Origin: Mycobacteriales bacterium
GTDB taxonomy: Bacteria > Actinomycetota > Actinomycetes > Mycobacteriales > SCTD01
Length of the DNA: 64,000 nt
Direction of reading: 5' to 3'
NCBI GenBank assembly: GCA_046595815.1
Contig: JBKJSN010000088.1
Location: 10,264 to 74,263, forward strand
Shown: positions 4,099-47,756 of the stretch, piece by piece
How positions within the stretch are numbered: position 1 is the first letter of the stretch
How the letters are laid out: every line of letters starts with the position of its first letter
Program-made: the position numbers and the translations under genes
The notes under the pieces: model-generated
Database searches by the model: none
Seen by the model: only the letters and a program-made list of their open reading frames with translations
What the model was told of the DNA's origin: nothing

Positions 4099-4207
4099 CG
4101 AGAGTCCTCCAGATCAGGGGCCGGGTGCACCGCGAGGCGGGCGGGCGAAGGCTACCCGTATCGGGGTGATCCGGCTCACACCTGGGGCTACGTGATGCCC
4201 GTCACAC

Positions 4208-10221: not shown

Positions 10222-10267
10222 GGGAGCTCTCCTTATGAGTGGGGTTGCCGGACAGTGGGCTTGACGG

Positions 10268-10307
10268 GCGCGCGCCCCGGGCCTGGACCCAGGACCGGGG
10301 CGCGCGC
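10268..10307 (-). promoter_or_regulatory. GC-rich intra-operon hairpin immediately downstream of the flp pilin gene
   Basis: 13-bp perfect arms GCGCGCGCCCCGG (10268-10280) and CCGGGGCGCGCGC (10295-10307). No U-tract. Confidence 0.5.
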
Positions 10308-10323
10308 AGGGCTCTGGACCGGC

Positions 10324-10548
10324 CTAGAACCGCAGGAAGCGGCGGAGGATGAACTGCTTCACGACCTCGAGGAACTCGCTGGACGTGACGATCTTGTAGA
10401 GGATTCCGGCGCAGCCAGCCGCGACGGCGGTGCCCATCGCGTACTCGGAGGTGACCATGCCGGCGTCGCCGTCCTCAGCCCGGGACGCGTGCCGGGACTG
10501 GACGCGGGCGGCGATGCGGTCGGTGACCCCGCTGAAGCGGACGCTCAT
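10324..10548 (-). CDS. flp: Flp-family type IVb pilin (DUF4244)
   Basis: 74 aa. Prepilin cleavage-type motif G/MVTSEY followed by hydrophobic AMGTAVAAGCAGILYKIV. Confidence 0.8.
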   Translation of the reverse strand: MSVRFSGVTDRIAARVQSRHASRAEDGDAGMVTSEYAMGTAVAAGCAGILYKIVTSSEFLEVVKQFILRRFLRF

Positions 10549-10671
10549 AGGTGTGCCCTTCTGTCTGATCCGGACCGTGTCGTCCGGCGCCGGTGAGGGT
10601 CGTGGGGGTCCGACAGTTCGTGAACAGGTTGACCAAGCGCTGTGGACGGCAACTGGGCCTGTGGACAGCTC

Positions 10672-11388
10672 TCAGAAGCCGTTGAGGAGGGGACCAGCGA
10701 CGGCGATGACGCACGGCACCGTGCCGAGGAGGAGGAAGGCGGGCAGGAAGCAGACGGTGATCGGGGCAGCGGCCTGCGCCCCCGCGCGCTTGACCTTCTT
10801 ACGCGCGACCGTGTTCGCCGCCCTGCGGGCGTCCTGCGCGACCCGCGACACGGCGGCAGCAACTGGGGTTCCGCCCTCAGCCGCCCGACGCAGGGCGCGC
10901 GACGCTGAGCCGGCGGCACCCGTGTCACCGAGCTCACCGAAGGCTTCTTCAGTCGGCGTACCCACACTGAGCGCCCCAGCGACGCGCGACAGCCTTGCCC
11001 CAGCAGGTCCACCGACCGCGTCGGCGACCGAAGCCAGCGCGTCCGCGAGCGGGCTGCCCCCCGCGAGGCACGCCCCGACGAGGTCAAGGGCGAGCGGCAG
11101 CTGGAGTGCGAGCAACTCTTCGGTGGGGTCGTTGCCCGCATCCAGCCGGGCCAGCAGCGGCGGCCCGCCAAACGCCACCGCGGCGCCAACAGCTGCCCCC
11201 ACCCAGCCGCCGATCAACCACCAGGTGACTCCCCCCAGGACCAGCAAGGCCGGACCGCGGAGGGCACGGTTCGAGGTCTGCCCCACCTCCGGCACCGCCC
11301 GAACCAGCGCGGTGAGCCGGCGGGCCGACGGTGGTCTGACCGCGAGCACGCCGACGCCAGCCCCCAACAACAGCGCAGCGAGAATCAC
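10672..11388 (-). CDS. tadC: type II secretion system F-family protein (TadC)
   Basis: C-terminal part of the track ORF shows the T2SS-F pattern and TM helices. The only in-frame start near the TadB stop is GTG 11388, which overlaps that stop (GTGA). Track ATG 11700 would overlap tadB by over 300 nt. Confidence 0.7.
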   Translation of the reverse strand: MILAALLLGAGVGVLAVRPPSARRLTALVRAVPEVGQTSNRALRGPALLVLGGVTWWLIGGWVGAAVGAAVAFGGPPLLARLDAGNDPTEELLALQLPLALDLVGACLAGGSPLADALASVADAVGGPAGARLSRVAGALSVGTPTEEAFGELGDTGAAGSASRALRRAAEGGTPVAAAVSRVAQDARRAANTVARKKVKRAGAQAAAPITVCFLPAFLLLGTVPCVIAVAGPLLNGF

Positions 11389-12185
11389 CGGGATCCCCCA
11401 GCCGAGCGCACGATCGCCGCGGTCCAGGCCAGGCCGGCGAGCTCGAGACCGACGCCTCCCACCAGACAGCCCCAGCCGATCGGGGTGTGGAGGAGCACGT
11501 TGATCGGGTTGCCGCCAAGCCCTGCTCCGAGCGCCAGGCCGAAGGCCGGCATGAAGCAGATGAGCAACGCCGTCGAGCGAGCCCCCGCGAGTTCGGTGTC
11601 GAGTTCCTCGCGCAACGCCGCCTGCTCGCGCAATGCCTGCTCGAGGCGGTCCACTGCAGCGGCAAGGGAACTTCCCGCACCCTGGCAGACGCTCCAACAC
11701 ACCGCGAGACCCCTCAACAGGTCCGGCACGGCGCTCTCGGGCGCGTGGCGGACGAGCACGTCCCCTGCCTGCTCCCCCAGCCGAATGGCGCCCCCCGCCT
11801 CGGTGAGCGCCATGGCCACTCGACCCTTCGCTACCTGGCCAGCGTTCACGAGCGCGGCGTCCGGAGCACGACCGGCACGCAGCTCCGCAGCGAGCGTGGC
11901 CATCGCCTCTGCCGCGGCAACCCGCTCCTCCTGCCGGGCCTTGTCCACCCGCCGTCCGAGCATGGCTCGGCGGCCAAGGCCAGCGAGGACGGCTCCCACG
12001 CCAGCACCGACGGGCCCGAGGGGGTAGACCAACACGGCGAGTGCCACGACAGCGACGAAGGGGGCCGAAGGCTCCCAGCGCGCGCGCTCGGCGTACGGAA
12101 GCACGCCCGGTCGGATCGGCGCCGGAAATCCCACCGCAATGGCGACGCCCACAGCAGCCAAGGCCGCCGGGAGGAGGTAGTTCAT
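11385..12185 (-). CDS. tadB: type II secretion system F-family protein (TadB)
   Basis: Start set to ATG 12185 (MNYLLPAALAAVGV), which overlaps the ATPase stop (ATGA). Polytopic T2SS-F-like protein. Confidence 0.75.
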   Translation of the reverse strand: MNYLLPAALAAVGVAIAVGFPAPIRPGVLPYAERARWEPSAPFVAVVALAVLVYPLGPVGAGVGAVLAGLGRRAMLGRRVDKARQEERVAAAEAMATLAAELRAGRAPDAALVNAGQVAKGRVAMALTEAGGAIRLGEQAGDVLVRHAPESAVPDLLRGLAVCWSVCQGAGSSLAAAVDRLEQALREQAALREELDTELAGARSTALLICFMPAFGLALGAGLGGNPINVLLHTPIGWGCLVGGVGLELAGLAWTAAIVRSAGGSR

Positions 12186-13336
12186 GTCAGTAGGCGGTCG
12201 AGCTCGTGCGAAGCCGGCCCGCGACTGCCGCTCGCTGAGTGCCCGTCCCACGACCAGGCGGGCACGGCGGCGACGAGCCCGTCTGCTCCGCGCGTGAGCA
12301 CACAGACCTCAGCTAGGTGCCTCGACCCCTCTGGCGTCCGCACAAGGTGGGCAGCGAGCCGCAGCCCGGAGGCCAGCTGGCTGTGAAGGGCGAACCGGTC
12401 CATGCCCGCGACCGCGGCGAGCGCCTCGAGTCGTGCGGGCACGTCCCGAGCGGAGTTGGCATGCAAGGTGCCGCAGCCGCCCTCGTGCCCGGTGTTGAGG
12501 GCAGCGAGCAGGTCCACGACCTCGGCTCCGCGCACCTCCCCCACGACGACCCGATCTGGGCGCATCCGAAGAGCCTGGCGGACGAGGTCACGGAGCGTGA
12601 CCTCGCCGGCCCCTTCGACGTTTGCTGGACGGGCCTCCAGCCGGACGACGTGCGGATGCTCCGGATCGAGCTCGCCGGCGTCCTCCACGAGCAGCAGCCG
12701 CTCCGCCAGGCTGACCCGGGACAGCAACGCCGACAGCAATGTCGTCTTGCCGGTGCCGGTCCCCCCGCTGATCAGGAACGCAGCCCGGGAGGCAATCAGC
12801 TGCGACAGGAGCTCTGCTCCATCCGGGGGGACGCTGCCAGCCGCCTGCAGTTCGTCCAGGGTGAACACGCGGCGGCGGGGCACACGCAGGGACAGGCACG
12901 TGCCACGAGGGGCGACGGGAGGAAGCACGGCATGGAGTCGGACGCCGTCGGCCAACCGGGCGTCGACCCAGGGCTGGGAGTCGTCGAGGCGGCGCCCCGT
13001 CGGTGCGGCCAGTCGGACGGCGAGCCTGCGGACGGCGGCGTCGTCGGCGAAGCGGACGGCGGAACGCTCCAGACCCGCGCCGCGGTCCACCCAGACCTCG
13101 TGAGGGCCGTTGACGAGCACATCCGTGACGCGCGGGTCGGCGAGCAGCGCCTGCAGCGGCCCGGCCCCGACGATCTCGTCTTGCAGCCCGCGCAATACAT
13201 CGTGCGCCTCCGAGCCCACCTGCAGGCCGCCGCTCACCTCGCGCAGCGCCTCGGCCACGCGGGCCGCTGTCGGCACGCCACCCTCAGCGATCAGCCGCTC
13301 CCGGACCCGAGCTAACAGGGCCGAGTCGGCGCTCAC
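12182..13336 (-). CDS. tadA: TadA/CpaF-family secretion ATPase
   Basis: Walker A GGTGTGKTTLL, Asp box/Walker B LLLVEDAGEL, His box GHEGGCGTLHANS. GTGA overlap with ssd. Confidence 0.9.
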   Translation of the reverse strand: MSADSALLARVRERLIAEGGVPTAARVAEALREVSGGLQVGSEAHDVLRGLQDEIVGAGPLQALLADPRVTDVLVNGPHEVWVDRGAGLERSAVRFADDAAVRRLAVRLAAPTGRRLDDSQPWVDARLADGVRLHAVLPPVAPRGTCLSLRVPRRRVFTLDELQAAGSVPPDGAELLSQLIASRAAFLISGGTGTGKTTLLSALLSRVSLAERLLLVEDAGELDPEHPHVVRLEARPANVEGAGEVTLRDLVRQALRMRPDRVVVGEVRGAEVVDLLAALNTGHEGGCGTLHANSARDVPARLEALAAVAGMDRFALHSQLASGLRLAAHLVRTPEGSRHLAEVCVLTRGADGLVAAVPAWSWDGHSASGSRGPASHELDRLLT

Positions 13337-14400
13337 GCGACTGCCCTCTCGGGCGACACGAGGAGCTCTGCGAGCAGGGACTCGCTCAGCGCGGCAAGGG
13401 GTGAGCCTCTGCGCTCACCAGGCGGCACCCCTTCCTCCAGCGACCGGGCCAGCCCGGGCTCGGGCCGCAGCTCACCGGCAAGGGGCAGGGCTAGCGCCTG
13501 CTGGATCTCGGTCGCGGACAGCCCGGCGGGGGCCGGTCCGCGGACCACGAGCCGGACGTCGCGGCACAGGCGCGTGGCCCGGACCGCCACGCGTGCGGCC
13601 GCGGCAGCGGCCCGAACCTCGGCGGGTACGACGAGCAGCGACGTGGTGGCACAGCTCAGGACCTCCTGGCCCACCTCATCGATATGACGCGGCACGTCCA
13701 CGACGACCAGGGGGTGGCTTCGGCGGGCGGCCTGCAGGACTGCGCGCGCAGCTTCGACGGGGACCTGCACGCACTCCCCGCGGTCCCAGGACAGCAGGGC
13801 GAGCTCACCGAGGCGTGGGAGCGCACGGCCCAGCGCCGCCGCCGGCACACGGCCGCGGGTGGCTGCGAGCTCAGGCCAGCGAAGCCCGGGCTGGTCCTCG
13901 GCGCGGAACACCACGTCGATCCCGCCCCCCAGCGGGTCGGCGTCGATGAGCAGCGTGGGAATGCCCCTCCGGCCCGCTGCGTGGGCCAACGCGCAGGCGA
14001 GCGTTGTGGCACCCGCGCCGCCTCGCCCTCCGAGCACGGCGATCACGGTCCCCTCCGCACCGCGGCCTTCGGCGGCTTCAGCGAGGGCCTCCACCAGCCA
14101 GCGCTCCGCATCGGGGAGGAACACCACGCGCTCGGCGCCGAGGTCGACCGCCCGCTGCCAGACCCCGGCGTCGTCGAGGTCGCGGCCAAGCACCAGGACG
14201 CCATCGCGCCGGCCGGGACGCACGAGCGTGGTGGCGTCGAGCACGTCGTCGCCGACGATGACAAGGGAGGCCTGGTCCCAATAGCGTCGAACATGCTGCA
14301 CGTCGTGGATCACGTCCGCCTCCACGCCCGCGAGAGCGGTGAGGCGCAGCAGGTCATCGAGCGTGGCGGGGTCAGCGGTGATGAGAAGCGGTCGCGGCAT
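13333..14400 (-). CDS. ssd: septum-site-determining / CpaE-like ParA-family protein (Ssd)
   Basis: N-terminal receiver-like region plus deviant Walker A (GGRGGAGATTLA). Start moved to ATG 14400 (MPRPLLITADP); the upstream part of the track ORF is Pro-rich and overlaps the 6C RNA. Confidence 0.8.
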   Translation of the reverse strand: MPRPLLITADPATLDDLLRLTALAGVEADVIHDVQHVRRYWDQASLVIVGDDVLDATTLVRPGRRDGVLVLGRDLDDAGVWQRAVDLGAERVVFLPDAERWLVEALAEAAEGRGAEGTVIAVLGGRGGAGATTLACALAHAAGRRGIPTLLIDADPLGGGIDVVFRAEDQPGLRWPELAATRGRVPAAALGRALPRLGELALLSWDRGECVQVPVEAARAVLQAARRSHPLVVVDVPRHIDEVGQEVLSCATTSLLVVPAEVRAAAAAARVAVRATRLCRDVRLVVRGPAPAGLSATEIQQALALPLAGELRPEPGLARSLEEGVPPGERRGSPLAALSESLLAELLVSPERAVA

Positions 14401-14494
14401 GGCTGGAGCCTGGTCAGCCCCAACCTCGTCGAGAGCGTTCGGGCGACCGCCTGTGGACCGTCGTACCTGATCCACAGGGACGCGCCAAGGCCTG

Positions 14495-14600
14495 GACAAA
14501 CGACGACCCCCGCCGGGGGGGGAGGCGGGGGTCGTCGGTGGTCCCGGCTCGGGGGGATGAGACGGGACCGCGGGCGGCACGACCAAGGGGACAGTCGCGC
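14495..14600 (-). ncRNA. 6C sRNA (two stem-loops with C-rich loops); ends approximate
   Basis: On the minus strand: GGTCCCG-TCTCATCCCCCCGAGC-CGGGACC (14540-14569), then CGACGACCCCCGCC-TCCCCCCCC-GGCGGGGGTCGTCG (14501-14537), followed by TTTG. Its location between ssd and the HAD gene matches the recalled position of M. tuberculosis B11/6C (Rv3660c-Rv3661). Confidence 0.7.
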
Positions 14601-14654
14601 TCAAAACAGGGATGCCCTGGCCTCCAGGCGCCTAAACACTTGTAATCACTCGTA

Positions 14655-22534: not shown

Positions 22535-23082
22535 ACCTTCACCCCCAGGTGCCGGCGTACGGCGGTGGTCAACTGCTGCAGCGACGTGAACTCGCCGCGA
22601 TGCACGAAGGCGACCTTGCCCTTCCCATCGACGAAGAGGGTGACCGGAGGACCGGTGCTGTAGCGCCGCATGAAGGTTCCGCTGTCGTCCACAACGGCTG
22701 GCCAGTGCTGGCCCACGTCCTTGGCGAAGAGCAGGGCCAGACGTGGCTCGTCCTGCGTGTCGACGCCCAGCAGGGCCACCCTGTCCCCCGCCTTCGCGGC
22801 GAAGGCGGCGAGCACCGGCATCTCACGCTGGCAGGGGCCGCACCACGAGCCGTAGACGTTGACGAGCGTCGGCACGCCGGAGGGAGGCCCATCGAGGACG
22901 ACGTCCGGCCCGCCGCCCAGGCACGGCAGCACCAGGTGCGGCACGTCCCCGATGCCGGTCGGGCAGGGCTTGAGCGCGGCCGCCTGGCGCAGCGGCGCGA
23001 GGTCGACCTTCTTGGCAGCGCTCGGCGTGCTGCCACAGGCGGCGACGAGCAGGAGCAAGGCGCCAGCGGCGAGCCTTCTCAT
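22531..23082 (-). CDS. TlpA-family thiol:disulfide oxidoreductase lipoprotein
   Basis: Lipobox LLVAACGS, thioredoxin motif WCGPC. Start at ATG 23082 overlaps the nth stop (ATGA). Confidence 0.85.
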
Positions 23083-23807
23083 GCCTGCTCCGCCGGGCTG
23101 AAGAACTCCTCCGGGCGCACGAGGGCTTGCGCGCGGCTCGGATCGGTCTCGCCCTCGCCGTACGACGGGCACAGGCTTGCGAGAGCGCAGGCCCCGCACG
23201 CCGGCTTGCGGGAGTGGCAGACCCGGCGACCGTGGAAGATCACGCGGTGGCTGAACAGCGTCCACTCGGACTTGGGCAGCAACTGCGCGACCGCTGCCTC
23301 GACCTTGACCGGGTCGCTCTCTGCCGTCCAGCCGAAGCGGCGGACCAGCCGCCCGAAGTGCGTGTCGACCGTCAGGCCAGGCACGCCGAAGGCGTTGCCG
23401 AGGACGACATTGGCCGTCTTGCGCCCGATGCCGGGCAGCGTCACGAGGTCCTCTATCCGCGCGGGAAGCTGCCCGCCGTACCGCTCCTCGAGGGCCGCAC
23501 CGAGGCCGATCAGCGAAGCGGCCTTGTTGCGGAAGAAGCCGGTGCTGCGAATCTGCTCCTCCAGCACGGCGCGGTCGGCGGCGGCGTAGTCCCGCGCGGT
23601 GGGGTAGGCGCGGAACAGCGCGGGTGTGACCTCGTTCACCCGCTTGTCGGTGCACTGCGCCGACAAGATCGTGGCTACCGCCAACTCAAGGGGAGTCGTG
23701 AAGTTCAGTTCGCAGTGCGCGTGGGGGTAGAGAACGGCGAGCTCTCGGTTGGTACGCCGCGCCTTGCGCGTGAGGGCCAGCGCTGACTGCTCCGCACCGC
23801 TGCCCAT
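23079..23807 (-). CDS. nth: endonuclease III
   Basis: HhH-GPD motif ([14 protein letters not shown]) and C-terminal 4Fe-4S cluster CX6CX2CX5C ([17 protein letters not shown]). Confidence 0.95.
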
Positions 23808-23917
23808 GCATCAACCCTATGCGCGGCTCCCCCAAGCGGGTGAATCCTCCTCAAGGACTTGGCGGAACGTGACGACGCAACAGGTGTCCGCCGAAGAACC
23901 CCAGGAGTTGAGCCCCG

Positions 23918-24484
23918 ATGGATGCGATGAGCAGCACGCCGGTCCCGGCCGGACGCTCCGCGGCGGCCCCAGCGCCGCGCAAAACCACGGTGCGCCCCAC
24001 TCCTGTGCGTACGGAGGAGCATGCCCACCTGACGCTGGACGAGCTCCGGGAGTACCGCAAGGTGCTGTCCGCAGAGGAGTCCCGTGTCTCCTACTGGCGT
24101 CGCATCCTGCAGGCCCGACTGGACGTCGTGCTGGCCGGCGCGGAGGCGGACAGTGAGACGCTGCGACCGGTGCTCACCGACCAGCGCGTAGGAGCAGGCC
24201 GCCGGGCCCTCGTCGAGATCACGCCCGTCGACGACATCCCGCCGCTGCCCGACCTTGCCTCGCTCTGGGACCGCGTTGTCGACGTGACCGACGAGGCCGC
24301 GCTCGCAGCGCTCGCCGAGGACCTCACCGAGGCCGAGAAGCAGCTCTCGGAGTACCGCTCCGTACTGCACCGTCGCCTGGGTGCGGCCACCAGCGAGCTC
24401 ATCGCGCGCTACCGCGACGAACCGACCCTGTGCCTGTCGGCGCTTCCGCTGCGCCAGCCGTCGCGTCGCAGCGTTCCCGCCTGA
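23918..24484 (+). CDS. RsiG-like protein (c-di-GMP-binding anti-sigma family)
   Basis: Exact E-x3-S-x2-R-x3-Q-x3-D at aa 54-69 (EESRVSYWRRILQARLD). Second helix carries E-x3-S-x2-R-x3-H-x3-G at aa 140-155. Confidence 0.6.
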   Translation: MDAMSSTPVPAGRSAAAPAPRKTTVRPTPVRTEEHAHLTLDELREYRKVLSAEESRVSYWRRILQARLDVVLAGAEADSETLRPVLTDQRVGAGRRALVEITPVDDIPPLPDLASLWDRVVDVTDEAALAALAEDLTEAEKQLSEYRSVLHRRLGAATSELIARYRDEPTLCLSALPLRQPSRRSVPA

Positions 24485-24496
24485 CACACTGGATCT

Positions 24497-24616
24497 GTGC
24501 CCGTTCTCTGGCTTGCCCTGCTGACCCCTTTCGTGCTGCTGCTCGCGATGCTGGCGATGGAACGGGTGGAGAGCGGCCTCGGCGAACACGAGCCGGACCC
24601 GCACCGCCAAGCTTGA
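24497..24616 (+). CDS. candidate 39-aa small membrane protein
   Basis: Below the ORF-track cutoff. GTG-initiated frame VPVLWLALLTPFVLLLAMLAMERVESGLGEHEPDPHRQA has one TM helix plus an acidic tail, and mostly G/C at third positions. Confidence 0.35.
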   Translation: MPVLWLALLTPFVLLLAMLAMERVESGLGEHEPDPHRQA

Positions 24617-24667
24617 TCTGACACACTTCCTGCCGACGGGGGATCACCGGCATGGGGAGGACGCAGC

Positions 24668-25342
24668 GTGGACGAGGTCCTGGCGAAGGCAGGGCTGTTC
24701 CAGGGCATCGCGACCGAGGCCGCAGAGGCCGTCGCGGCGTCGCTGGAGTTCGGTGACTACGCCCGAGGCGAGACGGTCTTCGTCGAGGGCGAGCAGGGCG
24801 ACACGCTCTACATCGTCCTCGAGGGAAAGGTGAAGATCGGTCGCCGTGCCGCGGACGGTCGAGAGAACATGCTCTCGGTCATGGGCCCGTCCGACATGTT
24901 CGGCGAGCTGTCGCTGTTCGACCCCGGCCCGCGCACGGCCACGGCCACCGTCGTCACGGACGCGCGGCTGGCCTCGCTGGCACACGCCTCGCTGCGGCCC
25001 TGGCTCACCAACCGTCCGGAGATCGCCGAGCAGTTGCTGCGTGTGCTCGCCCGGCGTCTCCGTCGTACCAACGACTCCCTTGCGGACCTCATCTTCACCG
25101 ACGTGCCCGGCCGCGTTGCCAAGCAGCTCCTGGCGCTGTCGGAGCGTTTCGGCTCTGCCGAGCCCGAGGGCACCCGCGTGCACCACGACCTCACGCAGGA
25201 GGAACTCGCGCAGCTCGTTGGCGCCTCGCGCGAGACGGTGAACAAGGCTCTCGCCGACTTCGCCTCCCGCGGCTGGGTGCGCGTGGACTCGCGGGCCCTA
25301 ACGATCCTCGACGCCGAGCGGCTCGCCCGCCGGGCTAGGTGA
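24668..25342 (+). CDS. crp: Crp/Fnr-family cAMP receptor protein
   Basis: cNMP-binding domain ([27 protein letters not shown]) and C-terminal HTH ([20 protein letters not shown]). GTG start. Confidence 0.95.
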
Positions 25343-25739
25343 GTCCCGCAAGCTCCCGCAAGCCCTGGTACGACGGGTCCTGCGTCTCCAGGACGCTGAG
25401 CCCGATCGCCTTCAGCGGCTGGGCCCAGTGGGTCATGCGCGCGTAGAAGGTCCACTCGCGCACGCCCTCCAACGTCATGACCGCGACAAGCCGCGCCTCG
25501 CCCGCTCCGGCATCGACGAGCTGCTGCTCCATCTCCCTGAGCCGCGGGATCTCAGGTGCGGCGGGCAGCCCGTCCTCCTCGGCGAGGTAGGGCACTCCCA
25601 CGGCGACCTGGAAAGGGTGGTCGGGATAGGGGCAGGTGGTCGCCACGGCCTGATCGACGAGCACGACGACGGCGAGGCCGTCCTCCGTCAACGTGCGCAG
25701 CGTCACCCACTGGGCGAGAACGGCGGTGAGGTCGGTCAT
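25335..25739 (-). CDS. DUF695-like hypothetical protein
   Basis: 134 aa. The pattern ([18 protein letters not shown] ... REMEQQL ... REWTFYA) resembles DUF695/RraB-like proteins from memory. Confidence 0.5.
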
Positions 25740-25743
25740 GGCC

Positions 25744-28700
25744 TCATCCTTGCGCAGCGATCAGAGCCTGGGTGGCGGCAACCTCGGAGGTCTGGGCGGT
25801 GCTGCTGGCTACCTCAAGGGCCCGCTGGAGCGTGGCCCGTCCTCCCGCCGGATCCCCCGTGGCATGCAGCGCGGAACCAAGCACCCGCAGGGCGATGACC
25901 TCCGAACGGACGTCCTCGGCGGGGCAGTCGACTGCCTCACGTGCTACGTGGAGGGCCTCAGCGGGACGGCCGAGCTCCAGGAGGGTGCCAGCCCGATGCG
26001 CCAGCGCCTGCCGCCGGGGAAACAGCAATCCCGGTTCCTCGGCGGTGGTCGCGAGGGCCGCATCGAGCTCGGCGAGGGCCTGCTCCAGCTCACCGCGCTT
26101 GCGGAGGACCTGCGCGTGCAGGACGCGTGCGCCCAGGGCGGCGTGCGGCTTGAGGTCCAGCCCGCCGAGCGAGACGCTGACCGCCAGGAAGCAGGAGTCT
26201 GCGTCGTCCAGGCGCCCCTGGTCGAGGAACGCATAGCCCAGCGCCACGTGCGCGAGGGCCGCGGTGACGGGGTGGTGGCCCCGCTCCGACAGGTCGACGG
26301 CCTCGGACAAGAAGGCGATCGCGCGGTCGGGGAGGTCGGCACCACGGGCCGCCGCGCCTGCCGCGACCAGGGCCAGCGCCTGACCCCAGGCATCTCCGGC
26401 CTCGGCGAAGCGCGCTCGTGCTCGCTCGGCCTCGGCCGCCGCGACGATCACGTCCCCCTGCTCCGCTGCGGCCATCGCGTCGATGGTCAAGGTCGCGGCG
26501 ACTCCCCAGCGGTCGCCGTTCTGCTCGCCCAGCGGCAGAACGGAGGCAGCCAGGTCGCGGGCCTCCGCAAAGCGCCCCTGCAGCAGCCGCACGAACCCCT
26601 CGGTGCCCGCGACCCACGACAACCCGGCGGTGTCCTCCAAAGCTTCGAAGTGCTCTTCAGCCTGGTTCAGAGCGGTCATCGCCAGGCCGTAGTCGCCTCG
26701 GGTCGTGGCGCTCCAGGCCAGGTGCTGCAGCGCCCAGCCGACGCCGCGACGGTCGCCGACCTGCTCGGCGAGCACCCGAGCCTGCTCTACGTGCCGCTCG
26801 GCGTCCCGGAAGCGCCCCTCGAAGTAGTCCAGCAAGCCCAGCGCCCGCAGCGCCTCCGCCGCACGTCGCTCGTCGCCCTGGTCCGAGGCGGAGGCGAGCG
26901 CACCCACGAAGGCGGCGCGGGCGCCGCGCAGGTCTCCGCGACGCCGGCGCACCGAGCCCAGGACTAGTGCTGCCTGCACCGCGTGACCGGGCTCGTCCAG
27001 GGCGCCCCGGAGTTCGTCCTCCGCCTCGTCCAACCGGCTCTGCACCGCGAGCGCCTCAGCCCGAGCGAGCCGAACGGGGATGAGCACCGAACTGGCGAAA
27101 GGCTCACCCAACTTCGGGTCGGCGAGGCCCAAGGCCCTGCTCATCAGGTGCTCTGCGGCAAGAGCGTCGTCCCGGCCGAGCGCCGCGTGCCCGAGCCGCA
27201 CCAACGCGTCGAAGGCGATCCGACGGGCGGCCCAGGCGGGGTCGCCCGGGGGCAGGCTCATCTCGGCCGCCAGGTGCACGGCTCGCTCCCCTTGCGTGGC
27301 GGTGATGAGGTCCGCCTCGGCCCCGAGCGCCTTGTTGTCGGCGGACCACGCTGCGGCTGCCCCGTGCCGACGGGCGCGATCAGCCTTGGCCAGGCCGGCG
27401 TACGCGACGTCGCGGACCAGGGTGTGGGCGAAGCGATACCCCTCCCGCTCGGGCTCGAGCAGACGGCGGTCGACGAGAGCGCCCACGGCAGCAAGGACGA
27501 CGTCGGGCTCGCCATGACCGCTCGCCCGGCCGACGGCCTCGAGCTCGGGCAGGGTCACGTGCAGGCCGATCACGCTGGCGTCACGAAGGACACCCTTCGC
27601 CGCACCGTCGAGGTCGTCGATCCGCGCAGCGAGTACGGCCTGCACCCCGGCAGGCAGGAGGTCCTCGGGCACCTCGCCCTGCAGGATCCATCGGTTTCCC
27701 GTGCGCACCAAGGCGCCACGGTCGATGAGCAGGTGCAGCAGCTCGGCGAGGAAGAACGGGTTCCCCTGCGCCCGGTCGAGCAGCGCCGAGCGGACCGCGT
27801 CATCAAGCTCGCTGGCCCCCAAGTAGGCGCGCAGTAGTCGCTCGGCCGCACCCGGCTCTAGCGGCAGCAAGGGGACGAGCTCGGTGCTGCCCTGCAACCA
27901 CCACTGCGGCCGGCCCGGCACGTCGAGCATGTCCATACGCCCGAGCGCCAGGAGCAGGACTGGGCCGCGCGTCGCGGAGGCGACCTCGAGAAGCCCATCG
28001 ATCAGGGTCGGGGTGGCCCAGTGCAGGTCGTCGATCACGAGCAGCAGCGGGCCCTCCGCAGCGAGGCCGGTGAACAGCTCTGCCACGGCTTCGCGGACCG
28101 CGCTGCCGCCGGTCGGCGGGCCTGGCGCAGCCGTCTCAAGCGGACCGTCCACGGCGAGATCCTCGAGCCCGAGCAGCAAGCGCAGTCGCTCGGTCGTCTG
28201 TGCCGTGACCGAGCTCCCGGAGGAGGCCTGGGACAACCGGGCAACGGTGCGTGCGACACGCTCCCGGGCCACGTCCACGCTGTCGCCTTGCTCGATGCCG
28301 CAGGCGGTGCGGACCATCTCGGAGACTGCCGCGAGGTCTCGGCCCTCGCCGTACGGCGCGCAACGGCCCCAGAGGACTCGTACGCCGGTCACCTCGCCGG
28401 CGCGGCGGGCAACCTCCTGCGCCAGCCGCGTCTTGCCTACGCCAGCCTCACCGGTGACGAGCACGGCGTGCGGCTCGCATGAGTCAATGGTCTCGTGGAA
28501 GCGCCCGACCAGCAGCCCCAGCTCGGCGTCCCTTCCGAGGAAAGGCGCGTCGTCGCCGAGGCCAAGCCGAGTGGCCCCCGCAGGGCGTAGGCCGAGCAAC
28601 TCGAAAGCCTCGACGGGTTCGCGTTTTCCCTTGAGCCGCAAGGGCTTCAGGGCTCGCCAACTCGCCGTCGCCATGGTGATGAGCGCCGTGTCACGCCCCG

Positions 28701-29235
28701 CAACGACCGCACCCACACCTGCCGAGTCAGCGAGGCGCGAGGCGGTGTTCACGGTGTCACCGACGACGGTGTACGACAGGTGCGCCTGCACACCGGCGAT
28801 GACCTCGCCGGTGTTGAGGCCGACCCGCAAGCCGAGTTGACGGCCACCGCCGCTCTCCTGAGCAACTAGGCGGCGCACCGAGGCCTGCATCTTGTAGGCG
28901 GCTCGGACCGCACGCTCCGCGTCGTCCTCGTGAGCAGTCGGCGCTCCGAAGACCGCCATGATGCCGTCCCCCACGAGCTTGTCGACGTGGCCTCCGTGCT
29001 CGGTGACGATCGCGGCGAGGGTCGCGAGCACCCGGTCCGTGACGACACCCACCCGCTCCGGGTCGAGGTCCTCAGCCCAGCTCGTGAAGTCGGACAGGTC
29101 ACCGAACAGGACCGTCACGACGCGACGCTCGGTCTCGATCTCGGTCGGCGCCACGTCGCTCACCAGCGCGGCACCGCAGGAGAAGCAGAACCGGGCGCCG
29201 GGCACGATCGGCGTGCCGCACACCGGGCACGTCAT
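25744..29235 (-). CDS. class III adenylate/guanylate cyclase fused to STAND AAA ATPase and TPR repeats
   Basis: N-terminal zinc ribbon CPVCG...CFSCG. Cyclase motifs VTVLFGDLSDFT, GDGIMAVFGAP, YTVVGDTVNTASRL. P-loop GEAGVGKT. Long TPR-like C-terminus. Start set to ATG 29235 (MTCPVCG). Confidence 0.9.
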   Translation of the reverse strand: MTCPVCGTPIVPGARFCFSCGAALVSDVAPTEIETERRVVTVLFGDLSDFTSWAEDLDPERVGVVTDRVLATLAAIVTEHGGHVDKLVGDGIMAVFGAPTAHEDDAERAVRAAYKMQASVRRLVAQESGGGRQLGLRVGLNTGEVIAGVQAHLSYTVVGDTVNTASRLADSAGVGAVVAGRDTALITMATASWRALKPLRLKGKREPVEAFELLGLRPAGATRLGLGDDAPFLGRDAELGLLVGRFHETIDSCEPHAVLVTGEAGVGKTRLAQEVARRAGEVTGVRVLWGRCAPYGEGRDLAAVSEMVRTACGIEQGDSVDVARERVARTVARLSQASSGSSVTAQTTERLRLLLGLEDLAVDGPLETAAPGPPTGGSAVREAVAELFTGLAAEGPLLLVIDDLHWATPTLIDGLLEVASATRGPVLLLALGRMDMLDVPGRPQWWLQGSTELVPLLPLEPGAAERLLRAYLGASELDDAVRSALLDRAQGNPFFLAELLHLLIDRGALVRTGNRWILQGEVPEDLLPAGVQAVLAARIDDLDGAAKGVLRDASVIGLHVTLPELEAVGRASGHGEPDVVLAAVGALVDRRLLEPEREGYRFAHTLVRDVAYAGLAKADRARRHGAAAAWSADNKALGAEADLITATQGERAVHLAAEMSLPPGDPAWAARRIAFDALVRLGHAALGRDDALAAEHLMSRALGLADPKLGEPFASSVLIPVRLARAEALAVQSRLDEAEDELRGALDEPGHAVQAALVLGSVRRRRGDLRGARAAFVGALASASDQGDERRAAEALRALGLLDYFEGRFRDAERHVEQARVLAEQVGDRRGVGWALQHLAWSATTRGDYGLAMTALNQAEEHFEALEDTAGLSWVAGTEGFVRLLQGRFAEARDLAASVLPLGEQNGDRWGVAATLTIDAMAAAEQGDVIVAAAEAERARARFAEAGDAWGQALALVAAGAAARGADLPDRAIAFLSEAVDLSERGHHPVTAALAHVALGYAFLDQGRLDDADSCFLAVSVSLGGLDLKPHAALGARVLHAQVLRKRGELEQALAELDAALATTAEEPGLLFPRRQALAHRAGTLLELGRPAEALHVAREAVDCPAEDVRSEVIALRVLGSALHATGDPAGGRATLQRALEVASSTAQTSEVAATQALIAAQG

Positions 29236-29266
29236 GCGCGGTTCCCGCACAAGCGTGGGGTGGAAA

Positions 29267-30010
29267 TCATGTCGCTGCCAGGTAGTCGAGCTGGGCGCGC
29301 ACCGACATCTCGGCGGCCGGCCACAGCACGCGGTCGACATCGACGTAGACCACCTCCACTACCTGACGCGGGGTGGTGGCACCGGCGTCCAGTGCCGCGC
29401 GTACCTGCTCCAGGCGCTGCTGGCGGTGATCGAGGTAGTGCTGAGCCGCGAGGCCCGCGTGAGGCAGTTCCGGTCCGTGGCCGGGCAGGACCGCGACCTC
29501 CCCGAGGTCGCGGAGCCGATGCAGGGACTCGAGGTAGTCGGCCAGGACGCCGTCAGGATGGGCGACGACGGTCGTGCCGCGGCCCAGGATCGTGTCGCCG
29601 GTGAGCACCGCATCGGGCAGGACGAAAGACAGGCTGTCGCTCGAGTGCCCGGGGGTGTGGGCGACCCGAAGCTCCAACCCTGCGGCCGCGATGACGTCAC
29701 CGTCGGTCAGGCCCTCGTCGCCGAGCCGGTGCCGACGGTCCAGCGCCCGCACGGGCGCACCGGTGAGAGCGGCGAGCCGGGCCGCTCCCTCACTGTGGTC
29801 AGCGTGGCCGTGCGTCAGCAGGATCACAGCAACCGGGCCGTGGGCCGCGACCGCTCGCAGGTGCGCCTCTTCGAGCGGTCCCGGGTCGATGACGACCGCG
29901 CTCTCAGAGTGAGGGTCACGCAGGACCCAGGTGTTGGTCCCCTCGAGCGTCATCGGGCCGGGGTTGGGCGCGAGCACCACCCCTGCAGTCGGCGTCACCT
30001 GCCGCAGCAT
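29267..30010 (-). CDS. MBL-fold metallo-hydrolase
   Basis: HxHxDH motif (LLTHGHADHSEG). Start at ATG 30010 (MLRQVTPTAG) overlaps the upstream stop by 1 nt. Confidence 0.85.
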   Translation of the reverse strand: MLRQVTPTAGVVLAPNPGPMTLEGTNTWVLRDPHSESAVVIDPGPLEEAHLRAVAAHGPVAVILLTHGHADHSEGAARLAALTGAPVRALDRRHRLGDEGLTDGDVIAAAGLELRVAHTPGHSSDSLSFVLPDAVLTGDTILGRGTTVVAHPDGVLADYLESLHRLRDLGEVAVLPGHGPELPHAGLAAQHYLDHRQQRLEQVRAALDAGATTPRQVVEVVYVDVDRVLWPAAEMSVRAQLDYLAAT

Positions 30011-31767: not shown

Positions 31768-31911
31768 CCTCTGCTGACTCCTTGGAGGTACCGGACACAG
31801 CGTGTGGCCTGTGTCACACGCTGAGTGTTCGTCGGCTCCGGGGGAACTCCTGCTTGAGTGCCCCAAGATCTCTTTTGCCCTGTTGAGGTGACCCAGCCGT
31901 ACTCTCGCGGC

Positions 31912-32889
31912 ATGGCCGACTTCCCCGCTGCCCGCCTGCACGTGGTGACCGGCAAGGGCGGAACCGGCAAGACGACCGTCGCCGCCGCCCTCGCCCTGGC
32001 CCTGGCCCGGGACGGCAAACGCGTCCTGCTGATGGAGGTCGAAGGTCGACAGGGCCTCGGGCAGCTGTTCGACACGCCACCGCTGCCGTACCAGGAGACC
32101 AAGGTCGCGGTTGCCCCCGGCGGGGGGGTCGTGTTCGCGCTGGCCGTCGACGCCGAGGGCGCGCTGCTGGACTACCTGCACATGTTCTACAAGATCTCCC
32201 CGAACGGCATCCCGGCTCGGACCCTGCGGCGGATCGGCGCGATCGACTTCGCCACGACCATCGCGCCCGGGGTGCGGGACGTCTTGCTGACGGGGAAGAT
32301 CAAGGAGGTCGTCACCCGCAAGGACGGCACGCGTCCCTGGTACGACGCCGTCGTGGTCGACGCTCCGCCCACCGGACGCATCGGCCGCTTCCTCAACATC
32401 ACCCACCAGGTCGGCGGGATCGCCAAGGTGGGCCCGCTCAAGGCCCAGAGCGACGGCGTAATGGCGGTGCTGCAGAGCAAGGTGACCGCCGTGCACCTGG
32501 TGACGCTGCTGGAGGAGATGCCGGTGCAGGAAACCCTCGACGCCGTGGAGGAGCTGCGGGCCCTCGACCTCCCCGTCGGCGGGATCGTGGTCAACATGGT
32601 CCGCCCGCCGGAGCTGCAGCCGGCCGAGCTGCTGGCCGCAGAGCGGGACGCGCTGGACCTCGCGGCCCTGGAGACTGGGCTCAAGGAGGCCGGCCTGGAT
32701 CCCACGCTGGCACCTGCTCTGGCACGGGAGGCAGGCGAGCACGCTGCTCGAGTGGGGCTCGAGGAGCGGGGAAGGGATGCCCTCCACGAGGTCGACCGCC
32801 CGACGTACGAGCTGCCGCTGCTGGCCGAGGTGGACCTCGGGTCGCTGTATGAGCTGGCCGATGCCCTCCACGAGCAGGGGATGGCGTGA
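31912..32889 (+). CDS. ArsA-family ATPase (anion-transporter-ATPase-like), first of pair
   Basis: Deviant Walker A TGKGGTGKTTVAAALA. Start at ATG 31912 (MADFPAARL). Confidence 0.85.
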   Translation: MADFPAARLHVVTGKGGTGKTTVAAALALALARDGKRVLLMEVEGRQGLGQLFDTPPLPYQETKVAVAPGGGVVFALAVDAEGALLDYLHMFYKISPNGIPARTLRRIGAIDFATTIAPGVRDVLLTGKIKEVVTRKDGTRPWYDAVVVDAPPTGRIGRFLNITHQVGGIAKVGPLKAQSDGVMAVLQSKVTAVHLVTLLEEMPVQETLDAVEELRALDLPVGGIVVNMVRPPELQPAELLAAERDALDLAALETGLKEAGLDPTLAPALAREAGEHAARVGLEERGRDALHEVDRPTYELPLLAEVDLGSLYELADALHEQGMA

Positions 32890-34010
32890 TGAACGTCGAC
32901 GAGCTGCTCGACACCGCCGAGATCATCGTCTGCTGCGGCTCCGGCGGAGTCGGCAAGACGACGACGGCTGCCGCCCTTGCCCTTCGAGCTGCTGAGCGTG
33001 GACGCAAGACCGTCGTGCTCACCATCGACCCGGCGCGCCGGCTGGCACAGTCGATGGGGCTCAGCGAGCTCGACAACATCCCCCGAGCCGTCAAAGGAGT
33101 CGAGGGAGACCTCGACGCCATGATGCTCGACATGAAACGCACGTTCGATGAGATCGTTCTTGCGCACGCGGACCCGGAGAAGGCAGAGCAGATCCTCGCG
33201 AACCCCTTCTACCAAGCCCTGTCGTCGTCGTTCGCCGGGACGCAGGAGTACATGGCGATGGAGAAGCTGGGGCAGCTCAAGGCGACCGGCGAGTACGACC
33301 TCATCGTCGTCGACACCCCGCCGACCCGGTCCGCGCTGGACTTCCTGGACGCGCCCGAGCACCTGAGCACCTTCCTCGACGGCCGGCTGGTCAAGGTGCT
33401 GCTGGCACCCGCGAAGGCCGGTGGCCGCGCGTACCTGAAGGTGTTTGGCGTCTTCACCAACGCGATCAGCCGCATCATCGGGGCCTCGTTCCTGCAGGAC
33501 GTCTCGCAGTTCGTCGGGGCGATGGAGTCGATGTTCGGCGGGTTCCGCGAGCGGGCGCAGGGCACCTACGACCTGCTCAAGGACCCGGCCACGGCCTTCG
33601 TCGTCGTCGCCACACCCGAGCGCGACGCCCTGCGCGAAGCGGCCTACTTCGTCGAGCGCCTGCACCAGGAGGACATGCCGCTGGCAGGGCTCGTCCTGAA
33701 CCGTGTCCACCGCGTCGCCGACACAGGCCTCACCTCAGGTCGTGCCCTGTCGGTCGCTGACGGCCTGGAGCCGGACTCCCTGACGGCCGGTGTCCTGCGA
33801 CTGCACGCCCAGCGAGTCGCTCAGGTACGGCGAGAGGCTCACCTCACGGAGCGCTTCACCAGCGCGCACCCCAAGGTGCCCATGGTGGAGGTAAGCGCTC
33901 AGCCCGGCGACGTGCACGACCTGGACGGCCTGCGCGCCGTGGGCGGCGACCTCAGCGCTGGTGGACGATCGACGCCTGCGCCTCGGAGAACAACCGCGCC
34001 CAGGACGTGA
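32886..34010 (+). CDS. ArsA-family ATPase, second of pair
   Basis: P-loop CGSGGVGKTTTAAALA. GTGATGA junction with the first ATPase (start GTG 32886 or ATG 32889). Confidence 0.85.
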   Translation: MMNVDELLDTAEIIVCCGSGGVGKTTTAAALALRAAERGRKTVVLTIDPARRLAQSMGLSELDNIPRAVKGVEGDLDAMMLDMKRTFDEIVLAHADPEKAEQILANPFYQALSSSFAGTQEYMAMEKLGQLKATGEYDLIVVDTPPTRSALDFLDAPEHLSTFLDGRLVKVLLAPAKAGGRAYLKVFGVFTNAISRIIGASFLQDVSQFVGAMESMFGGFRERAQGTYDLLKDPATAFVVVATPERDALREAAYFVERLHQEDMPLAGLVLNRVHRVADTGLTSGRALSVADGLEPDSLTAGVLRLHAQRVAQVRREAHLTERFTSAHPKVPMVEVSAQPGDVHDLDGLRAVGGDLSAGGRSTPAPRRTTAPRT

Positions 34011-34251
34011 CGTCGGGCCTGCGCCTGAGCAGCGCCCGCCGCTCGCGTTCGGTCATGCCGCCCCACACGCCGTACTCGACGCGGTTGTCGAGGGCGTCGG
34101 CCAGGCACGCGGTGCGTACCGGGCAACTGCGGCAGACGAGCTTGGCCAGATTCTGTGCCGCTCCACGTGCGAAGAGCAGGTCAGGGTCACTGGTGTGACA
34201 CAGCGCTTGGGCCGTCCACTCGCGGGTCAGGGTGTCAGTCGTCACCGTCAC
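33952..34251 (-). CDS. whiB4: WhiB-family regulator, WhiB4/WblA ortholog type
   Basis: ALCHTSDPDLLF ... VCRSCPVRTACLADALDNRVEYGVWGGMTERERRALLRRRP closely matches remembered WblA/WhiB4 sequences. Position between the ArsA pair and the PBP matches recalled synteny. Confidence 0.85.
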   Translation of the reverse strand: MTVTTDTLTREWTAQALCHTSDPDLLFARGAAQNLAKLVCRSCPVRTACLADALDNRVEYGVWGGMTERERRALLRRRPDVTSWARLFSEAQASIVHQR

Positions 34252-34411: not shown

Positions 34412-36781
34412 GTGACGACCTCGCCCGTCCTGGCCCGCATCGCAGGCGCCCTGGCCCTCTGCGTCTTGGCTGGCATCTGCCTGGCCGGGCTGCTGCTCCC
34501 CGTGATCGGCACGGTGGGCCTGCTCGGCAAGGCGGGCGCAGATGAATTCCTCGGGCTGCCCGCCGACCTGGACACCCCCGCGCTGGCCCAGCGAAGCAAG
34601 ATCCTGGACCGGGACGGTCGGGTGCTCGCCACGCTGTTCACGGAGAACCGCGTGCGGGTGACCCTCTCCCAGGTCCCCAAGAGCGCGCAGGACGCACTCA
34701 TCGCGATCGAGGACAGCCGGTTCAGGGAGCACCGCGGGATCGACGTGAAGGGCACTTTCCGCGCCCTCGCCCGCAACTCCAGCTCCGGCTCGGTGCAGCA
34801 GGGCGGCTCGACCCTCACGCAGCAGTACGTCAAGAACGTGCTCATCGAGAGCGCCCGGACCAAGGCTGGGCAGGACGCCGCACGGGAGCGCTCGGTGCAG
34901 CGCAAGCTCCAGGAGGCGCGCTACGCGCTCACTCTGGAACGCACGCTCACCAAGGACCAGATCCTCGAGGGCTACCTGAACATCGCCTACTACGGCAACG
35001 GGGTCTACGGGATCGGTACGGCGGCGGCTCACTACTGGGGTGTTCCGGTGTCCAAGCTGACGGTGGCCCAGGGCGCACTGCTCGCCGGCATGGTGCAGAA
35101 CCCCCGAAGGTTCGACCCACAGGACAACCCGCGCGACTCCGTGGCCCGCCGCAACGTCGTGCTGCGTCGGATGCGCGACCTTGGGTACCTCACCGAGCAG
35201 CAGGCGACGGCCGCCTCGCGCGCTGGGCTGGGGCTGCGCATCACCAATGTCCGCAGCGGGTGCGAGGCGCCGGGCGTCACCGCCCCGTTCTTCTGCGACT
35301 ACGTCCGCCGCTACCTCGAGGACGGGCCCGCGGGCAGTGCCCTCGGTGCCACGCGGCAGGAGCGGCAAGCCGTGCTGCTCGCGGGTGGGTTGACGATCAA
35401 GACCACCCTCGACGCGAAGGTGCAGCGGGCCGCGCAAGGGGCGGTGGACCAGCAGGTCCCCCGCAACGACCCCTTCGGCGCGGCGGCGGTCGCAGACGTG
35501 GTGGAGCCCGGGACCGGGGCGGTGCGGGCGATGGCCGTCAACCGGGGCTTCGGGAGCGGTCGACGCGAGACCAAGGTCAACCTCGCCCTCGGCGGAACCC
35601 TTGGTTTCCAAGGTGGTTCGACCTTCAAGATGTTCACGCTGGCGCATGCGATCCAAATGGGCATCTCGCCCCAGCTCACGCTCTACGCACCTCGCAGCTA
35701 CTGCCCCAAGGCCTACTCCTACAAGCTCGCCGACGGCGGCTGCCCCGGCAACGCCGGCGACTCGGAGTCTGGGCGCTTCACGTTGGTCAAGGCGACGTGG
35801 GAGTCGGTGAACACCTACTTCCTGCAGCTGGCTGAACGCACCGGGCTCGCGGCGCCGATCGGACTGGCCGAGGCCATGGGCGTGCGCCAGGTGAACGGCA
35901 CCTTCGAGGGCGAGCGGTTCAAGCGCTACGGCTCCTTCGTGCTCGGGTCGCCGGGTGTGAGCCCGCTCGCCATGGCCGGTGCGTACGCAGCACTGGCCGC
36001 CCGCGGGCAGTACTGCCCCCCGAACCCCATCGCCGGCATCACCGACAGCCAGGGAAAGCCCCTGCCGCTGCCGAGCTCGCCGTGCTCACAGGCGCTCGAG
36101 CCGGACGCGGCAGACACGGTCACGGCGATCCTGCGCGGCGTCATCGACGGGCCACTGCCGGCACGGACCGGCAAGGGTGCCTCGATCGGGCGGCCCGCGG
36201 CGGGCAAGACCGGCACCACAAATGACAGCAAGGCCGCCTGGTTCGTCGGCTACACGCCGGAGCTGGCCACGGCGGTCTGGGTCGGCAAGCCCACGCCCAC
36301 TCCGATGCGGGGGGTGCGCATCAACGGCCGCTACTACAAGGCTGTGTACGGCGGATCGCTCCCGGCACCCATCTGGCGCCAGGTGATGAAGGGGGCTCTC
36401 AAGGGCGTTCCGGTGTCGAACTTCCAGGCCCCGGCCACGCTGGACGAGGGGACCAAGGTCGCGGTGCCGAACGTTGCCGGACTGCCCGTGGACGCCGCCA
36501 CCGACCTTCTGCGTGAGGCGGGCTTCGGCGTCACGGTGGGCGCTGCGGTGAACGCGGGCCCTGTCCCCGCCGGGATCGTGGCCCGCACCAACCCCGCAGC
36601 GGGCACCGAGCTGCCGGCCGGGTCGTCGGTGACGATCCTGCCGTCCAACGGGATCGCTCCGGTCGCGACGCCGACACCCACGCCCTCACCGACGAAGCCG
36701 GGCAACGGACCACCTCCGCCGCCACCCACGGGCACGCCCTCACCGACCCCGAGCCCGACGAAGAAGAACAACGGCCGCTAG
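34412..36781 (+). CDS. ponA2: class A penicillin-binding protein (transglycosylase/transpeptidase) with C-terminal PASTA domain (PonA2-like)
   Basis: GT51 motifs ([24 protein letters not shown]). Transpeptidase motifs STFK and KTGT. PASTA-like segment and Pro-rich tail. GTG start. Confidence 0.9.
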
Positions 36782-47716: not shown

Positions 47717-47756
47717 CGACTCTCCCGGGTCTTCGGATCCTGACGGGGTGCTGGGC

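Follow-up and report, generated by a model that had tools for sequence, protein, structure and literature searches.

A gene for an RsiG-like protein lies on the plus strand between nth and crp in a 64,000-nucleotide stretch of a Mycobacteriales bacterium genome (assembly GCA_046595815.1, contig JBKJSN010000088.1, positions 10,264 to 74,263), to which we refer below as the window. RsiG of Streptomyces venezuelae (vnz19430; SCO4184, or AmfC, in S. coelicolor, where it is the rsiG gene; PDB entries 6PFJ and 6PFV) is a monomeric, twin-motif anti-sigma factor of WhiG that depends on cyclic di-GMP (c-di-GMP), and RsiG-(c-di-GMP)2-WhiG is the only sigma/anti-sigma pair known to be under direct c-di-GMP control. 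The original prediction, made from the letters of the window, described the gene as encoding an RsiG-like protein with one canonical and one degenerate c-di-GMP-binding motif. We found that the product belongs to the RsiG family, that it falls in a large clade whose second motif has lost an aspartate while its other motif residues are strictly kept, and that a conserved promoter-like element of the sigma-28/WhiG type stands before the gene. The gene, its motifs and the element are located as follows.

23918-24484, plus strand: rsiG-like gene, encoding a twin-helix (monomeric-type) RsiG-family protein of 188 amino acids
24077-24124, plus strand: motif 1 on helix alpha1, residues 54-69, ESRVSYWRRILQARLD, with E54, S58, R61, Q65 and D69; canonical
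24335-24382, plus strand: motif 2 on helix alpha5, residues 140-155, EKQLSEYRSVLHRRLG, with E140, S144, R147, H151 and G155
23851-23878, plus strand: promoter-like element, with -35 box TCAA (23851-23854), a 16-nucleotide spacer and -10 box GACGACGC (23871-23878)

Homology to RsiG extends well past the short motif. The protein matches the Pfam family RsiG (PF22802) over residues 32-76 with an E-value of 1.6e-15 (57 bits, against a cut-off of 27 bits), and the same family is present in all 240 homologues among the matches listed. A phmmer search of the PDB sequences matched S. venezuelae RsiG (6pfj_T) over residues 19-167. When a profile of 53 relatives was aligned to S. venezuelae RsiG with hhalign, the alignment took in both helices (97.9% probability, E-value 5.3e-13, 135 columns, residues 31-167) and paired H151 with Gln173 and G155 with Asp177. 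The protein was also modelled using AlphaFold2 (predicted local distance difference test score 84, predicted template modelling score 0.71). The model has the two long helices and linker of the RsiG fold, with the motifs on helices 40-73 and 126-167, and its top three Foldseek matches in the PDB are all RsiG chains (6pfv_T, 6pfv_E and 6pfj_T). It is not of the single-motif, homodimeric type found in Rubrobacter and Thermoleophilia. The G+C content at third codon positions (GC3) of the open reading frame (ORF) is 0.85, typical of coding sequence in the window, and some close relatives are already named 'RsiG family protein' by NCBI. The gene product is a genuine member of the RsiG family, of the twin-helix, monomeric type, as the name RsiG-like had suggested.

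Motif 1 is an exact E-x3-S-x2-R-x3-Q-x3-D and fits the family pattern E(X)3S(X)2R(X)3[Q/H](X)3D on helix alpha1, and its residues are 98-100% conserved among 308 family members. Motif 2 reads E-x3-S-x2-R-x3-H-x3-G; four of its five positions fit the family pattern, and residue 155 is Gly and not Asp. The residues and coordinates of both motifs had been given correctly in the original prediction. A chance motif was considered and is ruled out by the strong family-level homology together with the uniqueness of the full motif, of which the window, translated in six frames, has a single instance and 30 shuffles have none. The bare core E-x3-S-x2-R is frequent by chance (46 observed in the window against approximately 37 expected), and motif 2 is credible because homology places it on the RsiG helix alpha5, not because of the core alone.

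The role of each position is known from the RsiG-(c-di-GMP)2-WhiG complex, in which Glu contacts the ribose, Ser the phosphate and Arg the central guanines, Gln (or His) stacks on the outer, rotated guanine, and Asp reads the Watson-Crick face of that guanine (PMC7005675). In the RsiG papers the motif is written with [Q/H] at the stacking position; His was judged fit for stacking, although the swap was described for motif 1. We found His in motif 2 in all 120 scorable close relatives and in 297 of 308 sequences of a broader sample. On these alignments, His at the Gln position is the family norm and the replacement of Asp by Gly is the only real departure of motif 2. The earlier description of this motif as degenerate thus holds for the aspartate, but 'one and a half motifs' overstates the case, since the His is near-invariant in the family. 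Outside the ligand contacts, Y59 is the equivalent of Tyr69 of S. venezuelae RsiG, which stacks on Tyr58 of WhiG, and it is invariant in both family alignments.

The state of position 155 follows the distance from the window protein. None of the 129 homologues at 60% identity or more has Asp there (they have G, A or S, rarely N or E), while it is present in 18 of the 111 at 50-59% identity, in 48 of the 60 at 40-49%, and in all nine at 30-39%. An exhaustive search gave 397 clusters (50% identity) at an E-value of at most 1e-3; among the matches listed, Asp is kept in approximately 59% (89 of 151, that is, the window protein and 150 representatives), and ESRHD is the commonest second motif. We then placed these states on a neighbour-joining tree, a simple distance tree rooted on S. 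venezuelae RsiG and built from a sample biased toward relatives of the query. The inferred state at the root is Asp. The window protein belongs to a clade of 137 members without Asp, itself nested in a 243-member clade, 95% of which is Asp-less. Parsimony counts 14 changes at position 155, although with so biased a sample the exact number of events should not be over-read. Among 234 sequences of the Asp-less clade, position 155 is occupied by G in 111, by A in 76 and by S in 28 (215/234, 92%), and 74 more distant members have Asp.

With Asp in the distant relatives, in S. venezuelae RsiG and at the inferred root, and with the Asp-less clade nested, the tree makes the change from Asp to Gly a secondary, derived, clade-wide loss in a protein that was already twin-motif, and its direction is clear. 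This contradicts the suggestion in the original prediction that the protein could be an evolutionary intermediate, one standing between the single-motif homodimeric and the twin-motif monomeric forms of RsiG. Such an intermediate is superficially suggested by one full and one partial motif, but the protein has both helices, with homology to alpha1 and alpha5 of the twin-motif form, the outgroup and the more remote relatives possess a complete second motif, and the loss falls on a single large derived clade; we now consider the idea very improbable.

The clade is known to us from metagenome-assembled genomes (MAGs): homology and representative searches, cluster look-ups and a genome scan returned only MAGs among the clade homologues, and no cultured organisms. 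Of the RsiGs published for Geodermatophilaceae, Pseudonocardiaceae and Acidothermus, Gobs_4624 and Acel_1994 have locus tags approximately 90% along the gene order, which is compatible with the crp-linked clade, but this is only a hint. Separately, in MAGs of Ca. Nanopelagicales an RsiG-family protein of 159 amino acids with both motifs intact occupies the nth-crp position (10001-10480 in locus L084 and 9624-10103 in locus L085).

To see how the rest of the ligand site has fared, we examined the 234 Asp-less sequences, whose mean pairwise identity is 63% and whose minimum is 37%. The other nine motif residues are 99.7% conserved, compared with 72.5% for the other helix positions, and the stacking His is kept in 233 of the 234. 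Together with the restriction of position 155 to G, A or S, this conservation indicates that the binding site is still under selection, with a small residue required at 155, and is not in decay. Ligand binding therefore looks retained, and judging from the residues kept, c-di-GMP is most likely still bound, in an asymmetric manner. That the gene is a decaying or non-functional relic with an eroding ligand site might be argued from the one key contact that is gone, but the intact ORF, its coding-type GC3, its hundreds of orthologues, the near-complete conservation of the remaining motif residues and the conserved promoter and position all contradict it, and we put its probability close to nil.

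The loss of Asp on one helix might instead have changed the stoichiometry or the specificity of binding while the anti-sigma role was kept. The protein would then bind one c-di-GMP and not a dimer, or bind more weakly with a shifted switch point, or, at the base no longer read, accept another dinucleotide or a mixed one. In the solved complex it is Asp that gives base specificity (PMC7005675), and its replacement here is clade-wide and by small residues only, which suggests a selected change and not drift. The linker, a c-di-GMP contact in S. venezuelae RsiG, also shows clade-specific conservation; when we compared the Asp and non-Asp groups by Jensen-Shannon divergence, the clade-specific differences were concentrated in this inter-helix linker. 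However, the E, S, R and H contacts on the same helix are invariant, the near-universal retention of the His that stacks on the same outer base implies that the base is still there, and nothing points to another nucleotide. We regard an altered ligand as unlikely and prefer the reading in which the c-di-GMP dimer is still bound.

Indirect information on the partner comes from the region upstream of the gene. The promoter-like element lies 40 nucleotides upstream of the rsiG-like start codon, inside the 110-bp intergenic region that separates the gene from the divergent nth. The sequence TCAA-N16-GACGAC (23851-23876) occurs only once in the window, where 0.12 occurrences are expected, and it is the sole site in the window that satisfies the rule by which a preprint of the RsiG/WhiG authors predicts WhiG targets (T(A/C)AA-N16-GCCGA with at most one mismatch and the CGA intact, intergenic, and within 200 bp of a start codon). 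Of 83 other loci, 74 carry an equivalent element at this position. Its -10 box is GACGAC in the clade of the window, and loci further removed have GACGAT, ACCGAT or the canonical GCCGAT. In the position profile, CTCAAG and GTGACGA[C/T]GC stand out as two conserved boxes on either side of a variable 16-nucleotide spacer, as expected of a promoter. Across 1.17 Mb of loci, this spot accounts for 60 of the 90 strict matches, compared with 5 in shuffled sequence; a cluster among the remaining strict matches corresponds to conserved crp codons. Relaxed scans of the window for other sigma-28-type promoters gave counts near chance. The best window match to the canonical sigma-28/WhiG -10 box is a separate site, TCAA-N17-GCCGATGA at 1640-1668 on the minus strand, approximately 44 nucleotides upstream of the gene for a DUF11 surface-repeat protein (289-1596, minus strand), and the total of such sites is near chance.

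The conserved sigma-28-type element points to a WhiG-type partner and to feedback control, and it makes an indirect, though fairly strong, case that these genomes contain a sigma-28/WhiG-type sigma factor that transcribes the rsiG-like gene, that of its presumed inhibitor. Wherever RsiG occurs in published surveys, a WhiG homologue accompanies it (PMC7005675 and the preprint). The original prediction was right that the window itself has no WhiG/FliA-type gene: Pfam found no sigma-70 family domain above threshold among the 44 window ORFs scanned, and the only sigma trace is a sub-threshold Sigma70_r4 match inside the helix-turn-helix of Crp. The window does encode a stand-alone EAL-domain protein of 241 amino acids (60658-61383, minus strand), a putative c-di-GMP phosphodiesterase, and genes for c-di-GMP turnover are therefore present in the genome; no sigma-28-type promoter was found upstream of this EAL gene.

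The genes on either side of the rsiG-like gene are the following.

23079-23807, minus strand: nth, endonuclease III (TIGR01083, E-value 6e-74), divergent from the rsiG-like gene
24497-24616, plus strand: small ORF of 39 amino acids with one predicted transmembrane helix, starting 12 nucleotides past the rsiG-like stop codon
24668-25342, plus strand: crp, a factor of the cyclic AMP (cAMP) receptor type with cNMP-binding and HTH_Crp_2 domains

We examined this neighbourhood in 80 genome loci, all from MAGs of uncultured Mycobacteriales, Frankiales or Frankiaceae. The loci share a conserved block in which marP, nudix, tlpA and nth lie on the minus strand and are followed by the rsiG-like gene and crp on the plus strand. 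The upstream boundary is formed by nth in 79 of the 80 loci, crp lies downstream in 70 (six of the ten exceptions are contig ends), and in the closest loci crp is 81-96% identical. The same arrangement occurs in relatives that keep the Asp, namely P0162 (43% identical), the Ca. Nanopelagicales lineage and P0235. Since relatives with an intact motif 2 have it too, adjacency to crp is no special feature of the Asp-less variant; it is an ancestral gene order that is fixed for the clade. The order marP, nudix, nth, crp, extended by acs and nhaA on one side and by a metallo-hydrolase, two ArsA-like ATPases, whiB and a class A penicillin-binding protein on the other, is one that we take to match Rv3671c-Rv3682 of M. 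tuberculosis.

The spacer between rsiG and crp shows period-3 conservation and holds an ORF in 68 of 76 loci, usually of about 80 amino acids and ending in a conserved tail, MERVERPLR...ARPDEVETFVSEGYAPALERYWRRRRL. Only in the window and in the two closest relatives of the window (loci L002 and L003) is this ORF truncated. The small ORF has 974 homologues, all in MAGs, and NCBI locus tags make it consecutive to the RsiG-like gene; no Pfam family was found for it. We presume that it may be the positional counterpart of Rv3675 of M. tuberculosis.

The original prediction had drawn attention to the juxtaposition of two nucleotide second-messenger regulators. Crp is indeed the neighbouring regulator, but the small membrane ORF stands between the two genes, the order is ancestral, and no conserved Crp site was found. 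We scanned both intergenic regions flanking the rsiG-like gene for TGTGA-N6-TCACA with at most two mismatches, in 85 and 76 loci, and found matches in only three of the 85 and eight of the 76, none of them positionally conserved. Crp control of the rsiG-like gene was dropped for this reason. Adjacency to crp alone is not proof of cross-talk. A simple scan of 23700-24750 for signals of co-transcription found neither a sigma-70-type promoter nor an intrinsic terminator, which says little either way.

The fixed order does bear on the choice of partner. It could be that the crp-linked clade no longer regulates WhiG and that its RsiG coiled coil senses c-di-GMP on behalf of another protein; candidates are the co-transcribed small membrane protein, a different sigma factor and Crp. 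The sequence of rsiG, small transmembrane ORF and crp is fixed across orders, no sigma gene is nearby, and family members occur in Nanopelagicales MAGs. Several observations speak against this: the sigma-28-type promoter implies a FliA/WhiG-type sigma factor in these genomes, the Tyr that contacts WhiG does not vary, the window and its two nearest relatives have a truncated small ORF but an intact RsiG, and no conserved Crp site was found. In Streptomyces, too, there is no linkage between rsiG and whiG (vnz19430 and vnz26215; PMC7005675). A partner other than a WhiG-type sigma factor thus seems quite unlikely.

Other parts of the window relate to crp and its surroundings. Just downstream of crp, and separated from it by a DUF695 gene (25335-25739, minus strand), is the gene for a protein of 1198 amino acids (25744-29340, minus strand) with a zinc ribbon, a class III adenylate/guanylate cyclase domain, an AAA_16 ATPase domain and TPR repeats. 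It is kept at this position in many loci, which places a source of cAMP beside the cAMP receptor. Intergenic Crp-like sites with one mismatch to TGTGA-N6-TCACA occur at 4165-4206 (two sites, between an H+-pyrophosphatase gene and a divergent ORF of unknown function), at 31803-31818 (40 nucleotides upstream of the first ArsA-like ATPase gene, which starts at 31858) and at 58469-58484 (upstream of a nitroreductase gene, 58556); the genes behind these sites are candidate members of the Crp regulon. Further downstream of crp are two ArsA-like ATPases (31858-34010, plus strand), a WhiB-family regulator (33952-34251, minus strand) and a class A penicillin-binding protein with a PASTA domain (34412-36781, plus strand). 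We take this order to match that of Rv3679-Rv3682 in M. tuberculosis, which marks the window as the conserved actinobacterial crp region.

Elsewhere in the window, a Tad/Flp pilus module occupies 9470-14604 on the minus strand, with two TadE-like proteins, a TadB/C-like T2SSF protein, a TadA-like T2SSE ATPase and a TadZ/CpaE-like ParA protein, and is adjoined by a sortase gene (8634-9326, minus strand). A 6C RNA (Rfam RF01066, 60.7 bits) was found at 14498-14572 on the minus strand, at the 5' end of the mechanically called TadZ-like ORF; the true start of that ORF is therefore probably further downstream. A stretch of lower G+C content (0.65-0.69, against approximately 0.70-0.73 elsewhere) extends from about 47750 to 58100, with tRNA-Ser(gga) (47628-47716) and tRNA-Ser(cga) (58352-58441) as its boundaries. 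The stretch contains fragments of ISL3 and DDE transposases, a Schlafen AlbA_2/HATPase_c_4 protein, a HEAT-repeat protein and several ORFs without a family, and is probably an integrated island.

Taking the evidence on the rsiG-like gene as a whole, we consider it probable that the product is a functional c-di-GMP/WhiG anti-sigma factor of the monomeric, twin-helix form. The sigma-28-type promoter would drive rsiG, and probably the small ORF downstream as well. By analogy with FliA and FlgM, a WhiG-type sigma factor would then probably drive its own inhibitor, in a negative feedback. RsiG would bind a c-di-GMP dimer through nine canonical contacts and sequester WhiG for as long as c-di-GMP is high. 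On the alpha5 side the outer guanine would be stacked by His151 and not read by an Asp, giving an asymmetric recognition that may be tolerated, may be compensated by the linker or the partner, or may be used to retune affinity; the small residue at 155 may make room for a contact from either the linker or the partner.

Some observations weigh against this account. The clade has GACGAC as its -10 box, which departs from GCCGAT at two positions, and the promoter is one predicted from sequence. A search by tblastn with FliA and SigD probe sequences found no WhiG/FliA gene in the window or in the 10-kb flanks on either side in 85 loci, a weak negative. The E-value of the Foldseek matches is modest (1.4e-2, with a template modelling score of approximately 0.5). 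The Jensen-Shannon comparison of the Asp and non-Asp groups found no obvious compensating acidic residue. Finally, a quadruple mutant of S. venezuelae RsiG (R71A, D79A, R169A and D177A) lost binding (PMC7005675); as Asp177 is among the residues mutated jointly, affinity in the Asp-less clade could be seriously reduced.

A more far-reaching possibility is that the Asp-less, crp-linked clade is a functionally distinct c-di-GMP switch. The small residue at 155 would leave space for the base to be read by the partner sigma factor or the linker, or specificity would be relaxed at one outer nucleotide, with a change in affinity or selectivity, and the fixed unit of promoter, rsiG, membrane protein and crp, with an adenylate cyclase alongside, would couple c-di-GMP to cAMP. 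We think this improbable; if true, it would mean c-di-GMP/cAMP coupling across a large group of uncultured soil and freshwater actinobacteria.

The family, its fold, its motif and its mechanism are already known (PMC7005675, PMC8325347, PMC12871210), and the two motifs of RsiG have been described as strikingly well conserved. Against this background, a large, environmentally abundant and uncultured branch of RsiG has lost one of the four base-specifying contacts while the others are strictly constrained, so that the clade forms a natural experiment on how much of a symmetric binding site is needed. In the portions of the literature that were available, the Asp-less clade, the fixed nth-rsiG-crp position, the sigma-28-type promoter of rsiG and the small membrane ORF appear not to have been described, although part of this may already be implicit in published data, for example on cultured genera or in the regulon tables of the preprint. 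With the same limit on the sources, three testable leads go unmentioned in the RsiG literature: the ancestral nth-crp position, the sigma-28-type promoter and the small membrane protein downstream. They extend the current model and do not overturn it, and they are candidates for biochemistry.

Among known systems, S. venezuelae RsiG is the closest. The two proteins share a Pfam family, homologous helices and a linker, each being laid out as an N-terminal tail, alpha1 with motif 1, the linker, alpha5 with motif 2 and a C-terminal tail, and RsiG is the best structural match to our model. The pattern of motif 1 is identical and the WhiG-contacting Tyr is kept. The window protein also has the internal repeat of alpha1 and alpha5, with 7 of 23 positions identical when the motifs are in register (by manual count). 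It differs in its overall identity of only about 25-30%, in having His for Gln173 and Gly for Asp177, and in a linker with a conserved DD-PPLPDL-LW block. A sigma-28-type promoter stands before the gene here; in the parts of the papers that were available, rsiG is not named as a target of WhiG. The gene is also fixed between nth and crp, unlike in S. coelicolor, whose crp we take to be SCO3571, far from SCO4184.

The crp-linked members that retain the Asp (for example P0162, P0235, and P0228 from Ca. Nanopelagicales MAGs) share with the window protein the gene position, with marP-nudix-(tlpA)-nth on one side and crp on the other, as well as length, the ESRQD of motif 1 and the His of motif 2; unlike it, they keep the full second motif E-x3-S-x2-R-x3-H-x3-D. 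The single-motif, homodimeric RsiG of Rubrobacter radiotolerans (PDB entries 7LQ2-7LQ4) is similar in helix alpha1 and motif 1, which are homologous (phmmer E-value 1.2e-3, residues 32-74). However, it has approximately 85-118 amino acids, one helix and one motif and must dimerise, whereas the window protein has two homologous helices in a chain of 188 amino acids. In flagellar regulation, the anti-sigma-28 factor FlgM is itself expressed from a sigma-28 promoter, and here too a sigma-28-class promoter precedes the gene of a presumed anti-sigma-28-family factor. The likeness to FlgM/FliA is a functional analogy only: the rsiG-like protein has no sequence or structural relationship to FlgM, and its control would be by c-di-GMP and not by secretion.

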